From the IMG/VR virus record IMGVR_UViG_2703718826_000002: 18,148 nucleotides of DNA. One strand, written 5' to 3'. Below, one piece after another: positions 1,559 to 14,889 of the stretch. The DNA is from a virus (taxonomy: Duplodnaviria; Heunggongvirae; Uroviricota; Caudoviricetes). How positions within the stretch are numbered: the stretch's first letter is position 1; each line of letters opens with the position of its first letter. The notes beneath the pieces were generated by a model. That model did no database searches, was not told the DNA's origin, and was given only the letters and a program-made list of their open reading frames with translations. The position numbers were made by a program, and so were the translations under genes.

Positions 1559-2455
1559 CTAGGCAAACAGCGCATTTTGTTTAAGTCCAACGACCTTTGC
1601 AAAATTCCCAATCAGGATCCCTTTAGCTACTGATACCCGGTCGGCAAAATCGACTTTAGAAGCGGCAGCCACCAGCTGCTGATTTAGCTGGTGGGCTTTC
1701 TGTTCCAGAAGTTGCTTTTGTTCAGCTAACTCGGCAGCCAGGCGCAGAGCTTCTGGAAGCGTCTGGGGGATTGCGACCGGTTGCTGTTCTTTTTGTCGGA
1801 AGTAGCTGTCTTCCAGTTTTTCAAAGAATGCCCATGCCTGATCGGTTTCGAGCATTTTAGCGTGACGGGCAGCTCCTCGTTCTGTCCAGAGGATGAGAGA
1901 GCGCGCTTTGGGGGAGACTGGATTTTGTGAGTAGTTTAAAGCTACCCGCAAATTTTTCAGCTCATCGCCAATAACCTTGAAAAAGTGCTTCGCTTCAACA
2001 AAGCGTACTTTGTTCTCATGATGATTCTGGCGAATGCGAATCGCTTCTGTACCATACCCCTTAGCAAGAGTTTCGGTTGTTACGACACGCACTCCCTGCC
2101 ACTCCAGAACGGGAATTTCATCCGACTGATTTTGAACAACCACCAGCTCTGATTCCTGAACTGAAGGTGCATGAACTTTTTCTGATTTAACGTTAGTAGC
2201 TTTCATTCTGTGTGCCTCCTTGCGTGCTTCGGCTGCGACGGTTGCGTAATTCAGATGCCCCTGTTCGAGCAGGTATTCGCGGATATCAGACAGCAGGATG
2301 CGGTGAACTGCGTTCTTGTCCTTTCTCCGGTAAAGTTGTTTGGTGATCATGAAGTAGTTGGCAATAACGCCCGGTATATCCCTAGTACTGATACAGGCAG
2401 TGTGCTGTTCAATTGCCTCGATCATCTCTTCACGGGTAACTAATGACGTTCTCAT
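1559..2455 (-). CDS. phage antirepressor-family protein (Ant-like; Bro-N/ORF6N-like central region and KilA-C-like C-terminus)
   Basis: 298-aa ORF. Central motif VVTTETLAKGYG...VRFVEAKHFFKV and C-terminal VSVAKGILIGNFAKVVGL resemble antirepressor domains. Start overlaps upstream ORF stop (ATGA). Confidence 0.6.
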   Translation of the reverse strand: MRTSLVTREEMIEAIEQHTACISTRDIPGVIANYFMITKQLYRRKDKNAVHRILLSDIREYLLEQGHLNYATVAAEARKEAHRMKATNVKSEKVHAPSVQESELVVVQNQSDEIPVLEWQGVRVVTTETLAKGYGTEAIRIRQNHHENKVRFVEAKHFFKVIGDELKNLRVALNYSQNPVSPKARSLILWTERGAARHAKMLETDQAWAFFEKLEDSYFRQKEQQPVAIPQTLPEALRLAAELAEQKQLLEQKAHQLNQQLVAAASKVDFADRVSVAKGILIGNFAKVVGLKQNALFA

Positions 2456-2673
2456 AGTCCCTCCTGAGCAGAAGCGTTAACAGGGAGGCACCAGTAACTG
2501 AGAGAATTGCGCAAATCGGTTGAAAAGCGGGCAGAGAAAATGCAGGGAGCGTCAGGAAGCTGAGAATGGGCCTCATCTTCTGTCGGTGCAATAACGAAGT
2601 GATAGTGACGTTTTTGGCAGGAGTAAAAGCGCCAGATAAATTCAGGATGAATTGGGGTAGGGACAGTAGCCAT
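2452..2673 (-). CDS. small protein (73 aa) translationally coupled to the antirepressor; icd-like position
   Basis: Strong RBS AAAGGAGG 8 nt upstream of ATG; ATGA overlap with the Ant-like gene, as in P1 immI icd-ant coupling. Confidence 0.5.
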   Translation of the reverse strand: MATVPTPIHPEFIWRFYSCQKRHYHFVIAPTEDEAHSQLPDAPCIFSARFSTDLRNSLSYWCLPVNASAQEGL

Positions 2674-3032: not shown

Positions 3033-4160
3033 TTATTCATTAAGCCATGCCAGAGCTTCATCAACCTGCGCTTCGTCTTCGACGCTAAGCACTTCGTCCT
3101 GGGGAACATAATCCGCCAGCATAGCGAAACAATATGTATCCCAATGGTCTGGTGAGTGCAGGTTGAGTTTTTTCTTCATATCCTCCTTACTCATCACCTT
3201 CCATTGACCTGCGGAGTTAATCCCTACAGGGATTTTCGACGCTTCCTCAATAGTTTCATTACCCTTATCCAGTCTCATACGACCAGATTTTACGGCCTCT
3301 GCGGCTTGAACGTTGGCATAAGCACGTTTATCAAAGTACAGGCTCTTATCTTCACGGCTATGCATCTTTTTACCCCAGCGTATACGCTGTACGGTAATAC
3401 CATAATACTCGTACATCAGATCCGCCGTTGCTTTACCCAGGCCATCGCCGTCTATCGCTATGGTGATATTGGGGAATCGCTCAGGATTACATTCTGCGAA
3501 AATTTTGGCGGCAAGCTGCGTTTCTGTAACGTCTGTGTATTCCAGCATTCGATAGTTGATTACACGGCGTTTATTTCGCTGGCCGGACACCATCATGATA
3601 TTGATAAAGGACTTATCCCGTCCTGTACCACCAGCAACGTCCACACATGCAAGCCAGCCCCATCCTTTGGCAATCTTGACTTTCCGCCGCGTCGCACGTT
3701 CAACCTCATCACGTCCAAGAAGGAAGCCGTCCTGTAATTTAGGGAATAGGCCGCGTACCTTAATCATGTACATAGGGTTATCACGCCCGCCGTACTCCGC
3801 CAGCTTCATTTTGATAAATTCTGACGTTACCAGCGGTGATTCCTCACTGTTAAGCGTGATCGCCGTATAAACGCCATCTGGGTTACCAGGACGCTTGGCC
3901 AGTTTATGGTGAGTATCGTAGAAATAGCCGCTTGGGCGTGTAGGCTGTGACAGTAATAAGATGCGGTTATCCTGTCCGGTAAGAGCACCGGTGATGATAC
4001 CGAAAGCTCTATCACTGACACCGGAGGCTTCATCGATAATATACAGAAGATGATCTGCGTGTTCACCGGCGAGAACTTCTTCACTTCCCAGACGAAAGCC
4101 CTTCGGTACTACAGTCCATACACCTTTACCAGTAGACTGGCCCCCTGAATCTCCAGACAA
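3033..4160 (-). CDS. terminase large subunit, C-terminal portion (Walker B plus nuclease domain); gene interrupted upstream
   Basis: 375-aa ORF starting at a TTG; contains Walker B-like [11 protein letters not shown] and acidic nuclease-domain motifs. In-frame stop 3 codons upstream of the putative start. Confidence 0.75.
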
Positions 4161-4165
4161 CCAGT

Positions 4166-4183
4166 ATCACTTATTTAAGTGAT
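4166..4183. repeat. 18-bp perfect palindrome ATCACTTATTTAAGTGAT at the break between the two terminase ORFs
   Basis: Revcomp of ATCACTTA is TAAGTGAT; provides stop codons in all three minus-strand frames. Confidence 0.8.
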
Positions 4184-4605
4184 AACAGGTGTCTGGAAAT
4201 ATAGGGGCAAATCCAACCAGTAACCTCATAGAAAGCGGTTTCTGTCAGAACAAAATAATCAGCAAGCCATGGAAAACGGCTGGTGGCAGTAGCCCAGTTT
4301 ATCTTGATGTACTTGAATATACCGGTCATTACCTGCTGAATTTTGTTCGCAACGATAATGGCGCGGGCACCGGGATACATGATTATGAACAACATGATCA
4401 TGATAGAAGTCATGTCTGATTTCCCGGTACCGTGACCAGACGAAACAGATGTCTTGCTACCCTGTTCCTGCACAGACTCAATAATCAGATCCTGCTGCCA
4501 GGTAGGTGTTTTGCCGAACAAAACATCAGCGGCCGCAATCCAGTCATAACGATATAGCGCCACCAGCTCGCGCCAACGTGGATCCGTTACGCAACTTCTG
4601 GCCAT
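4171..4605 (-). CDS. terminase large subunit, N-terminal portion (Walker A SGHGTGKS)
   Basis: 144-aa ORF with P-loop; ends in TAA inside the palindrome. Start overlaps the stop of the upstream acidic protein (TAATG). Confidence 0.7.
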
Positions 4606-4976
4606 TAATCATCATCCCCGTATAGCTTGCGGGTAACTTCTTCGTCTTCCTCCTCGTCTTCGTCCAGGTCTTGTTCCAGCCATGGGTCGTTTGATACACC
4701 TTCAGTATCAACATCTCCATAACCGCCTGTATCAACGATATCGGCGATTTCTTCCCTACGCTGCTCAATCCACAATGCGGCATCGGCGCGGCGGTTGGCG
4801 GCCCGTTCTCGCGCAACTTTGTCCAGATCTTCAAGAGAAGGGCCACCGACGGCTGTTTGCCTTTCCTCATCATCGGTATTGGTCTTAGGAGCACGCAGAT
4901 CGGCTTTGATTTGCTCCAGCATCAGGGGCGGCACTTTCCCGCCATGCGCCTCGATGAATTCAGCTGCTTCCAGCAC
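4605..4976 (-). CDS. acidic packaging-associated protein, probably C-terminal part of a terminase small subunit
   Basis: 123-aa ORF with poly-acidic C-terminus (DEDEEEDEE); translationally coupled to the large terminase. Frame is open upstream to 5009, overlapping the 104-aa ORF. Confidence 0.45.
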
Positions 4977-5236
4977 TGACCAGTTATTTTCACGCTTTCG
5001 TTCGTACTGTCATCAATCAAAACAGACGAATACTTAGACACAGCGATAGCTTTTAAGCGCAGATAAACATCGCGCTTATCGACATCCAGATGCGGGTATT
5101 CCTTTTCAAGAATTGCTGCGAGTTCTTTCGCTGATAGAAGAGATTTAGTGCGGATCATGTAATTCGCAATCTCGTACGATGTTATTCGTGAGTGATTTAT
5201 TTCCATGAAGTGGCGTCCCTGCCAGTTAAGTAACAT
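4922..5236 (-). CDS. putative N-terminal (DNA-binding) part of the small terminase-like protein; C-terminal tail likely out of frame
   Basis: 104-aa ORF; alternative start at 5206 (MEINH...). Last 18 residues ([18 protein letters not shown]) are the alternate-frame reading of the 123-aa ORF N-terminus. Confidence 0.4.
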
Positions 5237-5281
5237 CCTGTCACCTACTGATTAGCCCATGTCAACTAATCAACGTGGAAT

Positions 5282-5323
5282 ATAATACCATCGATTAAAG
5301 AAATAGCAATACATTAGAGCAAT
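5282..5323 (-). promoter_or_regulatory. C1-type operator (5307-5323, ATTGCTCTAATGTATTG on minus strand, 14/17) overlapping promoter (-35 TTGCTA, -10 TATTAT)
   Basis: Begins immediately after the stop of the 347-aa gene and precedes the packaging genes; 16-nt spacer between hexamers. Confidence 0.45.
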
Positions 5324-5324
5324 T

Positions 5325-6368
5325 TTATCTAACGCTCGACGAGTAACTTGTGATAGCGCCGACTCCAAGCGCGTAATCAAAGAACAATCGTTGATGCATC
5401 GCCAGCCTACCGTGCGTCTTCTCCCAATTATCGCGGTCACGCTCAATATCACGCTGGCATGACTGGCACAGAGGAATTGCGTAAATGTCATGCGCGCATA
5501 ATCGACTATGACGAACGATATAAGGCGTAATGTGAGCGCCAGCTCCCGCAGCTCCACAGCCACAGCATGGACGGGAAGCCACAAAGTCCATGTACTCGGG
5601 CAATTTTAGCGATTGAAGTTTTGGTATTTTGAAATGCGCCATACCTGGGTCGGAGTCAACATCCACAGGGCATACTTTTGCACGCATCGGCGCGGCGCGT
5701 TCTTCCATCATCTGAACATATGCTGTAGCGCGATCGTCATACGGGCGAATATCCGCCTCTTTCAGAGGTCCGCTATCCTGCGGAGCAGCCTTCATCTTAT
5801 TTATTGATATGCGGCAGACTTCTTCCGGCATCAGGTGCATCATGTTACGCATGAAAGCCCACCAGCACAGCTCCTGAATACTTAAATCATGGCTATCTGA
5901 AAGGCCCATTTCCTGACGGGCGACATCCAGTATCCAGTTAACGCGATTATTGTGCAGCGTTTCTTTCAGCTCATTAAAACCACGCATCCGGTAATGGTTA
6001 TCGTGATGCCAGCACAACAACACCGCGCTATTGTCTCGTTCAGCGTGGACAATATGGTTGTCACACCAGCTACGATCTGCGGCCTGGCATTGCCCCTCTT
6101 TCCTGCGCAACCACGCCACCAGCGCGTCAATTCCACCAATACGGCGAAACAGTTCATCGCTGTTAAAAAACGGCTGCAACGCCTCATTTGTTGCTATAGT
6201 TTGCTCGGAAGCAACGAGGCCGTCGTCCATGTGCTCGATTAACTCACGCGGCACCGGCTCCATAATAAATTTACGGCCAGCCTCCACCAGCTTTCTGACC
6301 TCCTGATCCACTTTGAACGTGGCGAGGCCAAGTTCTTTCTGTACAAAGGGAGTAATTACGGCTTTCAC
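5325..6368 (-). CDS. hypothetical phage protein (347 aa) with Cys/His-rich C-terminal region (putative metal-binding)
   Basis: GTG start with AAGGTG SD; C-terminal [12 protein letters not shown]...C..C.SCQ cluster. Possibly DUF968-like or the pdcB-position gene of P1-like elements; not verified. Confidence 0.6.
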
Positions 6369-6395
6369 ATCACACCTTTAATCACTGATTGGGCT

Positions 6396-6575
6396 TTATA
6401 TGCTGCCCGGCATTCTCTGTTTAAGCACAACCATTTCCTGACGGCATAACACAGCAATAGCGGTCCTGGCACCAATTTGCTTACCAGCCAGGTATTGCTT
6501 TACCTCGCGGCGACTCACGCCATCAAGAAGCATCTTTAACGCTTCACGGGACAATTTGTTGTATTTACGTGCCAT
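6396..6575 (-). CDS. small basic protein (59 aa) downstream of doc (pdcA-like position)
   Basis: Start chosen at internal ATG (6575) with GGAG SD 9 nt upstream, 4 nt after the doc stop; the ORF-track start at 6596 would overlap doc. Confidence 0.4.
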   Translation of the reverse strand: MARKYNKLSREALKMLLDGVSRREVKQYLAGKQIGARTAIAVLCRQEMVVLKQRMPGSI

Positions 6576-6579
6576 TAAT

Positions 6580-6960
6580 CTACTCCGCAGAACCATACAA
6601 TCTACGTAACGTGTCGGCGACAGAAGATACAGATATCTCGCCAGTCGCAGCGCCTACAGTAAGGTCTGCCAGTTCAGGTGAATCAAATACCTGCACCCCG
6701 TTACGGCGTAGAAATAGCAGCGCACTGTTTAGCGCGGTACGCTTATTGGCATCATTGAATATATGCCCTCTCGCCGTAGCCACCAGGTAGGTGGCGGAGA
6801 CTTCGAAAAGGTCGGTGATCTCTTCGTAGGCAACTCTGGCCTGAACTCTCCCGATAATGGCCTCTGCCCTACCCGGATCAGACATTCCCGGCAGGCCGCC
6901 GTAGCGGTTTATATTCGCATCATGAAGCGCAATAAGTTCTTCCGGTGATATATGCCTCAT
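6580..6960 (-). CDS. doc: Doc toxin (death on curing; Fic-fold kinase that phosphorylates EF-Tu)
   Basis: 126-aa protein matching recalled P1 Doc almost residue for residue ([17 protein letters not shown]...[11 protein letters not shown] Fic-like motif); coupled to phd. Confidence 0.92.
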
Positions 6961-7357: not shown

Positions 7358-8916
7358 ATGAAAATGACAAGTATTCAACAACGTGCAGAGCTTCATCGTC
7401 AAATCTGGCAAATTGCTAACGATGTCAGAGGTTCGGTCGATGGATGGGATTTTAAGCAATACGTTCTGGGCGCGCTTTTCTACCGTTTTATCAGCGAAAA
7501 TTTTTCCAGCTATATTGAAGCCGGTGATGACAGCATCTGTTATGCGAAACTGGATGACAGCGTAATTACTGATGACATTAAAGACGATGCCATCAAAACC
7601 AAAGGCTACTTCATCTACCCAAGTCAGCTTTTCTGCAACGTAGCTGCGAAAGCAAATACCAATGACAGACTGAACGCAGATTTAAACAGCATCTTCGTTG
7701 CTATCGAAAGTTCTGCTTACGGCTACCCTTCAGAAGCAGACATCAAAGGTTTGTTTGCTGATTTCGATACCACCAGTAACCGCCTGGGTAACACCGTTAA
7801 AGATAAAAATGCCCGCCTGGCTGCGGTTCTGAAAGGGGTTGAAGGGTTAAAACTTGGTGACTTCAACGAACATCAGATTGACCTGTTCGGTGATGCCTAT
7901 GAGTTCCTGATTTCTAACTATGCGGCAAATGCCGGTAAGTCAGGCGGTGAGTTCTTTACACCGCAGCACGTCTCCAAGCTGATTGCACAACTGGCTATGC
8001 ACGGGCAGACCAACGTTAACAAAATCTACGACCCGGCAGCGGGTTCCGGCTCACTGTTGTTGCAGGCTAAAAAGCAGTTTGATAACCATATCATCGAAGA
8101 AGGCTTTTTTGGTCAGGAAATCAACCATACAACCTATAACCTGGCACGTATGAACATGTTTTTGCACAACATCAACTACGACAAGTTTGATATCAAGCTG
8201 GGTAATACACTGACTGAGCCACACTTCAGAGATGAAAAACCGTTTGATGCCATCGTTTCTAACCCGCCGTATTCGGTGAAATGGATTGGCAGCGATGACC
8301 CGACGCTGATTAACGATGAACGTTTTGCCCCGGCTGGCGTTCTGGCCCCCAAATCCAAAGCTGACTTCGCCTTTGTACTACATGCGCTGAACTATCTTTC
8401 TGCCAAAGGTCGTGCTGCGATTGTTTGCTTCCCGGGTATTTTTTACCGTGGCGGCGCGGAGCAGAAAATCCGTCAGTATCTGGTTGATAATAACTATGTC
8501 GAAACCGTGATTTCACTGGCACCGAATCTGTTCTTTGGCACCACTATTGCCGTCAATATTCTGGTGCTGTCTAAACATAAAACGGATACCAAAGTTCAGT
8601 TTATTGATGCCAGCGAATTGTTCAAAAAAGAGACTAACAACAATATCCTGACCGATGCCCATATCGAACAGATTATGCAGGTATTTGCCGGCAAGGAAGA
8701 TGTTGCCCATCTGGCGAAATCTGTTGCGTTTGAGACTGTTGTCGCGAATGACTATAACCTGTCGGTGAGCAGTTATGTTGAAGCGAAAGATACTCGCGAA
8801 ATTATCGATATCGGTGAGCTGAATGCTGAGCTGAAAACCACGGTCAGCAAAATCGACCAGTTGCGCAAAGATATTGATGCGATTGTGGCTGAAATTGAAG
8901 GCTGCGAGGTGCAGAA

Positions 8917-8920
<4 letters not shown>
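7358..8920 (+). CDS. hsdM: Type I restriction-modification system, methyltransferase subunit HsdM (Type IC, EcoR124-family)
   Basis: 520 aa; AdoMet motif [10 protein letters not shown] and N6-adenine motif NPPY (AIVSNPPYS); N-terminus matches recalled EcoR124I HsdM. Stop overlaps hsdS start (ATGA). Confidence 0.95.
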
Positions 8921-10152
<1,232 letters not shown>

Positions 10153-10159
10153 TTGAGCA

Positions 10160-10273
10160 TTTTTACAGACCGGACCACCTTAACATCCGGTCAGTATATA
10201 GACTATTTTCTACACGCCGGAAGTCGCCCTTAACTCCCTTCCGGCCCTTGCCAGACGGCACAAAGGATGCGCT
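10160..10273 (+). promoter_or_regulatory. hsdS-hsdR intergenic region with two inverted repeats (GACCGGA...TCCGGTC; GCCGGAAG...CTTCCGGC); candidate hsdR promoter/regulatory region
   Basis: 121-bp gap, consistent with Type IC organisation in which hsdR has its own promoter; no strong sigma70 hexamers identified. Confidence 0.3.
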
Positions 10274-13200
10274 ATGACTCATCAAACACACACCATTGCT
10301 GAATCCAATAACTTTATCGTCCTTGATAAGTACATCAAAGCTGAGCAAACAGGCGACAGCTACCAGAGCGAATCGGACCTGGAACGTGAACTGATTCAGG
10401 ACCTGCGGAATCAGGGCTATGAATTTATATCCGTAAAATCACAGTCGGCGATGCTAGCCAATGTTCGGGAACAGCTTCAGAACCTCAATGGTGTGGTGTT
10501 TAATGACAGCGAGTGGCGGCGTTTCACGGAGCAGTATCTGGATAACCCGAGCGATGGCATTCTGGATAAGACCCGTAAAATCCATATCGACTATATTTGC
10601 GACTTTATTTTTGATGACGAGCGTCTTGAGAACATCTATTTGATAGATAAAAAGAATCTCATGCGCAATAAGGTGCAGATTATCCAGCAGTTTGAACAGA
10701 CGGGTTCTCATGCTAACCGTTATGACGTCACGATCCTGGTTAATGGTTTACCGCTGGTGCAAATCGAACTAAAAAAACGCGGGGTGGCGATTCGTGAGGC
10801 TTTCAACCAGATACATCGTTACAGTAAAGAGAGTTTTAACAGCGAAAATTCCCTGTTTAAGTATCTGCAGCTGTTCGTCATTTCCAACGGCACTGATACC
10901 CGTTATTTTGCCAACACCACAAAGCGCGATAAAAACAGTTTTGACTTCACCATGAACTGGGCTAAATCAGACAATACACTGATTAAAGACCTCAAAGACT
11001 TTACCGCTACCTTTTTCCAGAAACATACTCTGCTTAATGTTCTGGTGAACTACAGCGTTTTTGACAGCAGTCAGACACTACTGGTAATGCGACCGTACCA
11101 GATTGCCGCCACCGAGCGCATTCTGTGGAAAATTAAGAGTTCCTTTACAGCGAAGAACTGGTCAAAACCGGAAAGCGGTGGGTATATCTGGCACACTACC
11201 GGTTCTGGTAAAACCCTCACCAGCTTTAAAGCCGCGCGTCTGGCAACAGAGCTGGACTTTATTGATAAAGTCTTCTTTGTGGTCGACAGGAAAGACCTCG
11301 ATTACCAGACCATGAAGGAATATCAGCGTTTTTCGCCAGACAGCGTCAACGGCTCGGAAAATACCGCAGGTCTTAAACGAAATCTGGATAAGGACGATAA
11401 CAAAATTATCGTCACTACTATTCAGAAACTCAATAACCTGATGAAAGCAGAAAGCGATCTGCCTGTATATAATCAGCAAGTGGTGTTTATATTTGATGAA
11501 TGCCACCGCAGCCAGTTTGGAGAAGCGCAGAAAAACCTGAAGAAGAAATTCAAACGCTATTATCAGTTTGGTTTTACCGGCACCCCTATTTTCCCGGAAA
11601 ACGCCTTAGGCTCAGAAACAACCGCCAGCGTATTTGGTCGTGAATTGCATTCGTATGTAATTACCGATGCGATTCGTGACGAAAAAGTGCTCAAATTCAA
11701 GGTGGACTACAACGATGTGCGGCCACAGTTTAAGTCTTTAGAGACAGAAACTGACGAGAAAAAACTGAGTGCGGCTGAAAATCAGCAGGCGTTTCTTCAT
11801 CCCATGCGTATTCAGGAAATCACGCAATATATTCTGAATAATTTCCGCCAGAAAACCCACCGTACCTTCCCTGGCTCAAAAGGTTTTAATGCTATGTTGG
11901 CAGTGAGCAGCGTGGATGCCGCGAAAGCCTATTATGCGACGTTTAAACGGTTACAAGAAGAAGCCGCTAATAAATCGGCTACCTATAAACCGCTGCGTAT
12001 TGCGACAATCTTCTCCTTTGCCGCCAATGAAGAACAAAATGCCATTGGTGAAATTTCCGATGAAACTTTTGATACCAGCGCAATGGACAGCAGTGCTAAA
12101 GAGTTTCTGGACGCTGCAATTCGTGAATATAACAGCCATTTTAAAACTAACTTTAGCACCGACAGTAACGGTTTTCAGAACTACTATCGTGATTTAGCCC
12201 AGCGGGTTAAAAATCAGGATATCGATCTGCTAATTGTCGTGGGGATGTTTTTAACCGGCTTCGATGCTCCAACATTAAACACGCTATTCGTCGATAAAAA
12301 CTTGCGTTTTCACGGCCTGATGCAGGCATTCTCCCGCACCAACCGCATTTATGACGCGACTAAAACCTTCGGTAATATTGTCACGTTCCGGGATCTGGAA
12401 CGCTCAACCATTGATGCCATAACGCTGTTTGGTGACAAAAATACCAAAAATGTGGTTTTAGAAAAGAGTTATGCAGAGTATATGGAAGGCTTTACTGATG
12501 CTGCCACTGGTGAAGCTAAACGCGGCTTCATGACAGTAGTTTCAGAACTGGAACAACGGTTCCCTGACCCTACCAGTATTGAAAGTGAAAAAGAGAAGAA
12601 AGACTTCGTTAAACTGTTTGGCGAATACCTGCGTGCCGAGAACATCCTGCAAAACTATGATGAATTTGCCACGCTAAAAGCCCTGCAACAAATCGATCTT
12701 AGCGATCCTGTTGCGGTAGAAAAATTCAAAGCAGAACATTATGTGGATAATGAAAAGTTCGCTGAATTGCAAACAATTCGTCTCCCTGCTGATCGCAAGA
12801 TTCAGGATTATCGTTCTGCCTATAACGATATTCGCGACTGGCAGCGCCGTGAGAAAGAAGCTGAGAAAAAAGAGAAATCAACCACTGACTGGGATGACGT
12901 AGTTTTTGAGGTCGATTTGCTGAAGTCTCAGGAAATAAACCTGGATTATATCCTTGGACTGATTTTCGAACACAATAGACAAAATAAAGGCAAGGGCGAA
13001 ATGATCGAAGAGGTCAAACGCTTAATTCGTTCAAGCCTGGGGAACCGGGCGAAAGAGGGCCTGGTGGTCGATTTTATTCAGCAAACGAACCTGGATGATT
13101 TACCAGACAAAGCCAGTATCATTGAGGCATTCTTTACGTTTGCTCAACGCGAACAGCAACGTGAAGCAGAAGCATTGATAAAAGAAGAAAATCTCAATGA

Positions 13201-13390
13201 AGATGCAGCAAAACGCTATATTCGCACGTCTTTAAAACGCGAATACGCCACCGAAAATGGCACAGAATTAAACGAAACATTACCAAAACTTAGTCCGTTG
13301 AATCCGCAATATAAAACGAAAAAACAGGCAGTTTTCCAGAAAATCGTCTCGTTTATTGAGAAGTTTAAAGGCGTAGGCGGAAAAATATAG
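10274..13390 (+). CDS. hsdR: Type I R-M restriction subunit HsdR (Type IC; PD-(D/E)xK nuclease plus SF2 helicase motor)
   Basis: 1038 aa; nuclease motif VQIELKK, Walker A TGSGKT, DEAH-like FDECHRS; size matches recalled EcoR124I HsdR. Confidence 0.95.
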
Positions 13391-14233: not shown

Positions 14234-14460
14234 TCAGCGAACGTAAATAGTGCCGCCGTTCTCTTTTTCCCATGCATCGCTACGTGCATAGCAAACATCG
14301 AGAAGTCTTCTTGCCGCAGTTTCCTCTACCCCAGCTTCGGCTTCGCGGAGAATACTGATGATCTGTTCGTCGGAAAAACGCTTCTTCATGGGGATGTCCT
14401 CATGTGGCTTATGAAGACATTACTAACATCGGGGTGTACTAATCAACGGGGAGCAGGTCA
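14234..14460 (-). mobile_element. IS3-family (IS407-like) left-end remnant: terminal repeat-like TGACCTGCTCCCC plus truncated orfA (51 codons)
   Basis: Minus strand from 14460 begins TGACCTGC...; ORF 14234-14389 starts MKKRFSDEQIISILREAEAG (typical IS3 OrfA N-terminus) with GAGGA SD, diverges, and stops after a conserved GG. Confidence 0.4.
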
Positions 14461-14889
14461 AACCATCGCGGTCATTTCATTGAGTTTTGTTTCCAGCTCA
14501 ATGCTTATACGTTCGGCATTATCAGCACGCTGGTTGGCGTCATGCGTCGCATCGTCGATCGCGTCCTGTTGCTGGCGTTTCAAATGTTCAATTTGCAGCT
14601 GAAGCTCTTCAATTTCTTTACCCTTCAGACCGAGATCCAACTGCATATTTTCAGCTGCATCTACCAGGGAGTTATGGCTATCAGCTTCTGCGTTATAAAC
14701 ATCAATAAGCTGTGCGTGAAGCATCTCCGCTGACTGAACCGCATTATCAAAAAAACGTGCTGTGAGGTCATCACAACTAACGCGGCGTTGCGCGGCCCGG
14801 ATGTTCTGGATAATGGCCGGGATACCGGCATTCAGGACATCAGGGATAGATACATTTTCGATTGATTGGTTTTGTGCTGAAGTGCTCAT
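14458..14889 (-). CDS. hypothetical coiled-coil protein (143 aa)
   Basis: Intact ORF with heptad-rich, Gln/Glu-rich C-terminal half; abuts the 72-aa ORF. Confidence 0.45.
   Translation of the reverse strand: MSTSAQNQSIENVSIPDVLNAGIPAIIQNIRAAQRRVSCDDLTARFFDNAVQSAEMLHAQLIDVYNAEADSHNSLVDAAENMQLDLGLKGKEIEELQLQIEHLKRQQQDAIDDATHDANQRADNAERISIELETKLNEMTAMV

Follow-up and report, generated by a model that had tools for sequence, protein, structure and literature searches.

A two-frame overlap in a P1-derived plasmid is very probably the scar of a deletion that joins lpa to pacA

Introduction

What do two overlapping minus-strand reading frames represent in an 18,148-bp contig (the whole stretch of DNA analysed here, hereafter the window)? 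The upstream frame is a 104-amino-acid (aa) open reading frame (ORF) running from 5236 to 4922, whose translation ends in RRMAGKCRP followed by a stop, and the frame at the -1 offset is open from 5009 down to a stop at 4605. An initial annotation had taken them for the two halves, N- and C-terminal, of a single small-terminase-like protein, joined either by programmed -1 frameshifting or, after repair of a 1-nt indel in an A4 run, as a single continuous ORF, with a slight lean towards pseudogenisation. Its description of the letters is accurate: ORF and translation analysis recovers the -1 offset with its 85-nt overlap, the GGGAAAG heptamer that the upstream frame reads as G_GGA_AAG three codons ahead of its stop, and the AAAA run. 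Here, we compare the locus with its relatives; the features discussed are collected in Table 1.

Results

Megablast against phage records showed that the region is P1-like but matches in two separate pieces, with query nt 1-297 aligning to the gene 10/lpa region of P1 and nt 295-751 to a stretch running from the 3' end of pacA into the beginning of pacB. Residues 15-78 of the 104-aa ORF match the Pfam family PF25716 (BPP1_LPA) with an E value of 7.5e-27 over profile positions 1-64 of 131, and the ORF also matches phrog_1704, an Lpa-like activator; its first 77 residues are those of the 150-aa Lpa of P1 and of an intact close relative, bar one substitution, D25N. The downstream frame matches the terminase family phrog_1711 over profile positions 277-402 of 417, the first pacA codon kept being Tyr265. 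A Pfam search of the 'pacA and pacB fragments returned no family, and these pieces were recognised instead by PHROGs and by direct alignment to P1. The two frames are consequently not parts of one small-terminase-like protein as first proposed, since the upstream one is Lpa (PF25716) and only the downstream one is PacA (C terminus, phrog_1711).

Neither piece qualifies at full length. Only 77 of 150 Lpa residues are left, covering the first half of the PF25716 profile, and of PacA only codons 265-397 are present, with the pac hexamer cluster and cleavage positions missing. Judged by its sequence, lpa' is a fragment of a PF25716 family member and not a functional member. The same pieces carry RefSeq (PGAP) labels in two records, NZ_CP061751 and NZ_JBRAVH010000003, where the downstream one is called "terminase, missing N-terminus" and the upstream one "hypothetical protein, missing C-terminus", both flagged pseudo.

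Table 1. Features of the locus, with positions in the window and, where given, in P1 (NC_005856)
Feature	Window	Strand	P1	Remarks	Basis
P1-matching segment, upstream of junction	5004-6727		88500-90223	98% identity, ungapped	BLAST
P1-matching segment, downstream of junction	4217-5006		91321-92110	84% identity	BLAST
C1 operator Olpa and sigma-70 promoter Plpa	5282..5323	-	89904-89945	Upstream of lpa'; 41/42 bases as in P1	NC_005856 annotation
lpa' remnant	5004..5236	-		Start codon to codon 77 plus 2 nt (233 nt)	P1 alignment; PF25716
Deletion junction	5004..5006	-		3-bp microhomology TAC common to the lpa and pacA breakpoints	Three-way alignment
'pacA remnant	4605..5006	-		Codons 265-397 plus stop, without its own start or LPpac promoter	Alignment; phrog_1711; PGAP
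27-aa tail of the chimeric 104-aa ORF	4922..5003	-		pacA read out of frame	Translation; 3n+2 deletion length
A4 run	4987..4990	-		pacA coding sequence, unaltered, no indel	Same in window, L003 and P1
GGGAAAG heptamer	4934..4940	-		pacA Gly-Lys codons; X_XXY_YYZ register only through the upstream deletion	
pacB 5' part	4216..4605	-		N-terminal ~130 codons, up to the point of IS2 insertion	Alignment to L003/P1; phrog_20197, phrog_5902, phrog_2
IS2 remnant with target duplication	4128..4220	-		83 bp (4133-4215) including both terminal inverted repeats; 5-bp target duplication CTGGT on either side	
pacB 3' part	3033..4132	-		83.8% to P1 pacB, 96.3% to L003	Alignment; phrog_5902, phrog_2
lpa in P1			89991-90443	Cut by the deletion after codon 77	NC_005856 annotation
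Late promoter LPpac in P1			90475-90493	Within deleted interval	NC_005856 annotation
pacA start in P1			90529	Within deleted interval	NC_005856 annotation
IHF site and primary pac cleavage positions in P1			90784-90813	Within deleted interval; cleavage at 90804-90813	

For the comparison, we used direct BLAST against P1 (NC_005856 88500-94800, locus L001) and, as an intact close relative, the E. coli plasmid NZ_CP122909 (locus L003), which is 97% identical and carries a 453-bp lpa and a 1,194-bp pacA. The two BLAST segments overlap in the window at 5004-5006, and the 1,097 bp that separate them in P1 are absent; the same stretch is missing relative to NZ_CP122909, to which window 4217-5006 aligns at 99.2% (L003 15797-16587). 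In the three-way alignment, the window tracks lpa to ...GATGACAGTAC and then pacA from TACGAACGAAAG..., a clean switch at TAC. Lost between these points are lpa codons 78-150 (the C-terminal half), LPpac, pacA codons 1-264 and the entire pac packaging site inside pacA. The cluster of eight TGATCA/G hexamers at pac (L001 2223-2409) is among the sequence lost, and in the window such hexamers reach at most two per 200 nt.

The length of the deletion accounts for the two frames. As 1,097 equals 3 x 365 + 2, i.e., 3n+2, the lpa frame enters pacA one base off register and meets a stop 27 codons later; the genuine pacA frame is open over the same stretch, giving the two-frame overlap that was first seen. 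Altogether, we conclude with high confidence that one deletion of 1,097 bp in a P1-derived plasmid, joining lpa after codon 77 to pacA at codon 265, left the frame junction as its scar. Such a deletion would have a single origin, in illegitimate joining mediated by the microhomology. Its two ends are 580 bp and 507 bp away from the primary pac cleavage positions; speculatively, the event may have begun with a break at pac, after which the ends were resected and rejoined, although the 3-bp microhomology and the roughly symmetric position around pac could be coincidence.

The gene downstream of 'pacA is broken as well. Both parts of pacB are large terminase by their PHROGs matches (phrog_20197, phrog_5902 and phrog_2 for the 5' part), and the 375-aa ORF over the 3' part, 3033-4160, starts inside the IS2 remnant. 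Compared to the uninterrupted pacB of L003 and to the full IS2 present in locus L002, the insertion in the window amounts to 88 bp, made up of the 83-bp remnant and the 5-bp CTGGT. Deletion of the inside of IS2 from one to the other of two 10-bp direct repeats, TATCACTTAA, would leave this remnant. A full IS2 (~1.33 kb) occupies the same pacB site in 12 of 12 other junction-carrying loci, and the 144-aa PacB fragment that ends in the remnant (KXP62144.1) is found on one contig only, the window; the 83-bp remnant is therefore either a private deletion or an assembly collapse. The initial annotation had coupled the frame junction with the split large terminase, and this link is borne out by the IS2 in pacB of all 12 junction loci examined. 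Outside the window, the protein P0025 (WP_050428130.1) is another 144-aa N-terminal fragment of PacB. It breaks off at most one or two codons from where IS2 inserted and runs into a different tail, EPPRESWRLNFLRKR, a hint of a separate second insertion almost at this position in pacB.

We then asked how the junction is distributed. A 301-nt probe centred on it matches 646 complete E. coli records but does so in one piece in only three, namely H15 plasmid A (NZ_CP010179), O15:H12 2273-PO3 (NZ_CP061751) and 22AR0118 (NZ_JBRAVH010000003); in each of 37 other records among the matches listed, the probe halves lie at two separate places. The deleted 1,097-bp segment matches 607 E. coli records, with at least 80% of it in one place in 550 and only part of it in the remaining ~57, and in the sampled rows of records holding the whole segment, lpa and pacA are annotated as separate genes. 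The orthologue comparison that had been suggested, a search for one uninterrupted ORF differing by one base, returned lpa and pacA as complete genes apart from each other.

Public E. coli and Salmonella contigs with the chimeric 104-aa ORF in exactly this form number 410. Because the junction-spanning 61-mer is identical in 12 of 12 related loci examined, all with IS2 at the same pacB site, the junction appears to be a single ancestral event within one spreading lineage. Members carrying the deletion without IS2 in pacB, sought among the 12 loci as a means of ordering the two events, were not found. In two members, more of 'pacA is gone beside IS2, the cut lying after window 4757 in L006 and after 4869 in L015; nothing preserves the downstream frame in the lineage.

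The chimera has also entered protein family collections. PHROGs holds a 104-aa family made of the chimeric ORF, phrog_26110. In the window, the stop of this ORF overlaps an ATG in the pacA frame (TGATG, 4920-4924, minus strand), so that gene callers predict a 105-aa 'PacA fragment from Met293, which forms a PHROG of its own, phrog_23417. The same lpa'-'pacA junction with an IS2-disrupted pacB is present at 2315027-2327341 of a 2.37-Mb scaffold (locus L012; KE136820.1, GCA_000408025.1), which represents either a copy of this P1-derived element integrated in the chromosome or a join made in scaffolding.

Discussion

The two readings offered at the outset can be judged against the intact genes. 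That a once-continuous small-terminase gene was broken by a 1-nt indel in the A4 run has next to no chance of being right. Adding or removing a base there would, on paper, put both frames into one, but the window does not differ from the intact pacA of NZ_CP122909 and P1 in this run or on either side of it (GCGTGAAAATAACTGG in all three), so that there has been no 1-nt change, and the sequence upstream of 5006 is lpa, not pacA. The ORF obtained by correcting one base would not be the single terminase envisaged but an Lpa-PacA chimera. With its A4 run unaltered relative to intact pacA of L003 and P1, the locus does not belong among homopolymer-indel pseudogenes. Programmed -1 frameshifting at G_GGA_AAG, joining the frames into a functional protein of ~210 aa as in lambda G-GT, is scarcely credible either. 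The heptamer is present within the overlap in the correct register (offset 2 in the upstream ORF), three codons ahead of the zero-frame stop, and a -1 slip there enters the open pacA frame; the likeness to lambda G-GT extends to the same heptamer, the same register and the nearness of the stop, and a weak Shine-Dalgarno-like GAGG stands 9 nt upstream. The two frames, however, are lpa and pacA, two distinct genes, each of them complete and 1.1 kb from the other in about 550 related records, and the slippery register is produced only by the 3n+2 deletion. In intact pacA of L003 the same letters sit at codon offset 0 as in-frame Gly-Lys (GGG AAA G), and P1 pacA has no heptamer at all, through synonymous changes (GGAGGAAAAG, read as codons GGA GGA AAA G); the GAGG is likewise pacA coding sequence common to the intact genes. 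No stimulatory element was found, as the 94 nt downstream of the heptamer fold no better than shuffles (z = -0.33), window 4400-5500 has no Rfam family match, and the only upstream candidate is the 4-nt GAGG. The architecture is not conserved, with 550 of 607 E. coli records holding the deleted segment whole, and most of the downstream frame is gone in L006 and L015; PGAP moreover treats both pieces as pseudogenes. With X_XXY_YYZ heptamers (Y = A or T) occurring at 0.0038 per position in the window, about 0.11 in-register heptamers are expected by chance in the 85-nt overlap, and the one present does not exceed what chance allows. Compared to lambda G-GT, the locus thus has no homologue-conserved two-frame architecture and no stimulatory element, and its frames come from unrelated genes. 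G_GGA_AAG is intrinsically shift-prone in E. coli, and an accidental, low-level Lpa'-'PacA fusion peptide may be made by slippage there.

Two further explanations were weighed. A chimeric join in assembly is conceivable because the window is an entire draft contig that carries one feature seen nowhere else, the collapsed IS2. Yet the identical junction is found in three complete-genome-assembly records from different hosts and countries and in all 10 independent contigs fetched, and the exact chimeric ORF is on 410 contigs, making an artefact at the junction extremely improbable; this reading is contradicted there and may hold for the IS2 remnant only. The other is that the truncated Lpa, 77 aa with a 27-aa tail behind the C1-controlled Plpa, has been kept for some function, for example interference with Lpa when a P1-like phage superinfects. 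Olpa and Plpa are still there, differing at one base of 42, the exact ORF is unaltered on the 410 contigs, and the further deletions in L006 and L015 leave the whole of it intact. The lineage is young, however, and because the 2.2 kb around the junction (window 4175-6400) are 99.96-100% identical in the ten loci retaining the region, conservation carries no signal; the flanking phd-doc and c1, both retained, may simply protect neighbouring DNA from loss. We think it very unlikely that the truncated protein is kept for a function, and give similarly little weight to the specific form in which the Lpa of an incoming P1-like phage is countered by it as a dominant-negative or decoy. Were that so, the decoy would constitute a superinfection-exclusion function for a plasmidised P1 derivative. 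In a weaker variant, an Lpa'-'PacA fusion arising by accidental slippage at the heptamer may have some activity.

Reading the overlap as a deletion scar, the initial lean towards pseudogenisation was correct, in agreement with the PGAP pseudogene calls, and the junction is an ordinary pseudogene junction, decay of a known kind. It was in fact already on record: NZ_CP061751 and NZ_JBRAVH010000003 have the identical junction with both pieces annotated as pseudogenes in RefSeq, differing from the window in having a full IS2 in pacB where the window has the 83-bp remnant only, and nothing here is new in kind. The locus serves instead as a caution, in that a 3n+2 deletion between adjacent genes on the same strand mimics a programmed frameshift, chance slippery heptamer included, and comparison with relatives settles such frame junctions at once.

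The window is a draft-assembly contig of a P1-derived IncY plasmid of E. coli. P1 has the same order of phd-doc, pdcA, pdcB (DUF968), Olpa/Plpa, lpa, pacA and pacB, with c1 on the opposite strand (NC_005856 89991-93206), and identity between the two falls from 98% upstream of the junction to 84% in pacA/pacB. Unlike P1, the window lacks the 1,097 bp, has its pacB interrupted by the IS2 remnant, and contains an ash/icd/ant module between pacB and c1. A P1 backbone with lpa, pacA and pacB all disrupted is that of a defective P1-derived plasmid. Because each of these three genes is essential for P1 plaque formation (PMC10695390), the deletion would abolish late-promoter activation as well as pac recognition and cutting, hence packaging, and the element would now persist only as a plasmid. 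In a single step, the deletion took out the activator of the late genes, the subunit that recognises pac and the packaging site.

Among the complete plasmids of the lineage, NZ_CP061751 (96 kb) still has P1-type functions, namely genes for replication and for partition, phd-doc, c1 and a type I restriction-modification system, and its annotation contains no head or tail genes; its cargo comprises tetrathionate reductase (ttr), arsenic resistance (ars), C4-dicarboxylate and lactate genes together with many IS elements. Typing classes H15 plasmid A as mobilizable, its relaxase being of the MOBH type. P1-like phage-plasmids are known to turn into plain plasmids by gene loss (PMC10879196), and those described are likewise IncY, P1-type elements that have lost essentials of the phage cycle and, in the complete members of the present lineage, similar cargo and IS elements are seen; relative to them, the window differs not in kind but in having one specific lesion. 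The deletion adds one more documented step to this conversion, in a lineage that is widespread by the count of contigs carrying its chimeric ORF.

Other parts of the window vary among its relatives. The KilAC/ANT antirepressor gene between pacB and c1 (1559-2673, minus strand) is split into ORFs of 73 and 298 aa, is intact (372 aa) in loci L007 and L008, and is labelled "frameshifted; internal stop" by PGAP in NZ_CP061751. A stretch of ~520 bp (14329-14846) is missing from the otherwise near-identical H15 plasmid A (NZ_CP010179), and the more distant NZ_CP122909 has a 1,263-bp hypothetical gene in that region. Adjoining phd-doc is a type I restriction-modification operon (7358-13390, plus strand) with hsdM, hsdS and hsdR products of 520, 411 and 1038 aa; hsdS is not of constant length in the lineage (411, 400, 403 and 208 aa), pointing to a specificity subunit that has been swapped or truncated.
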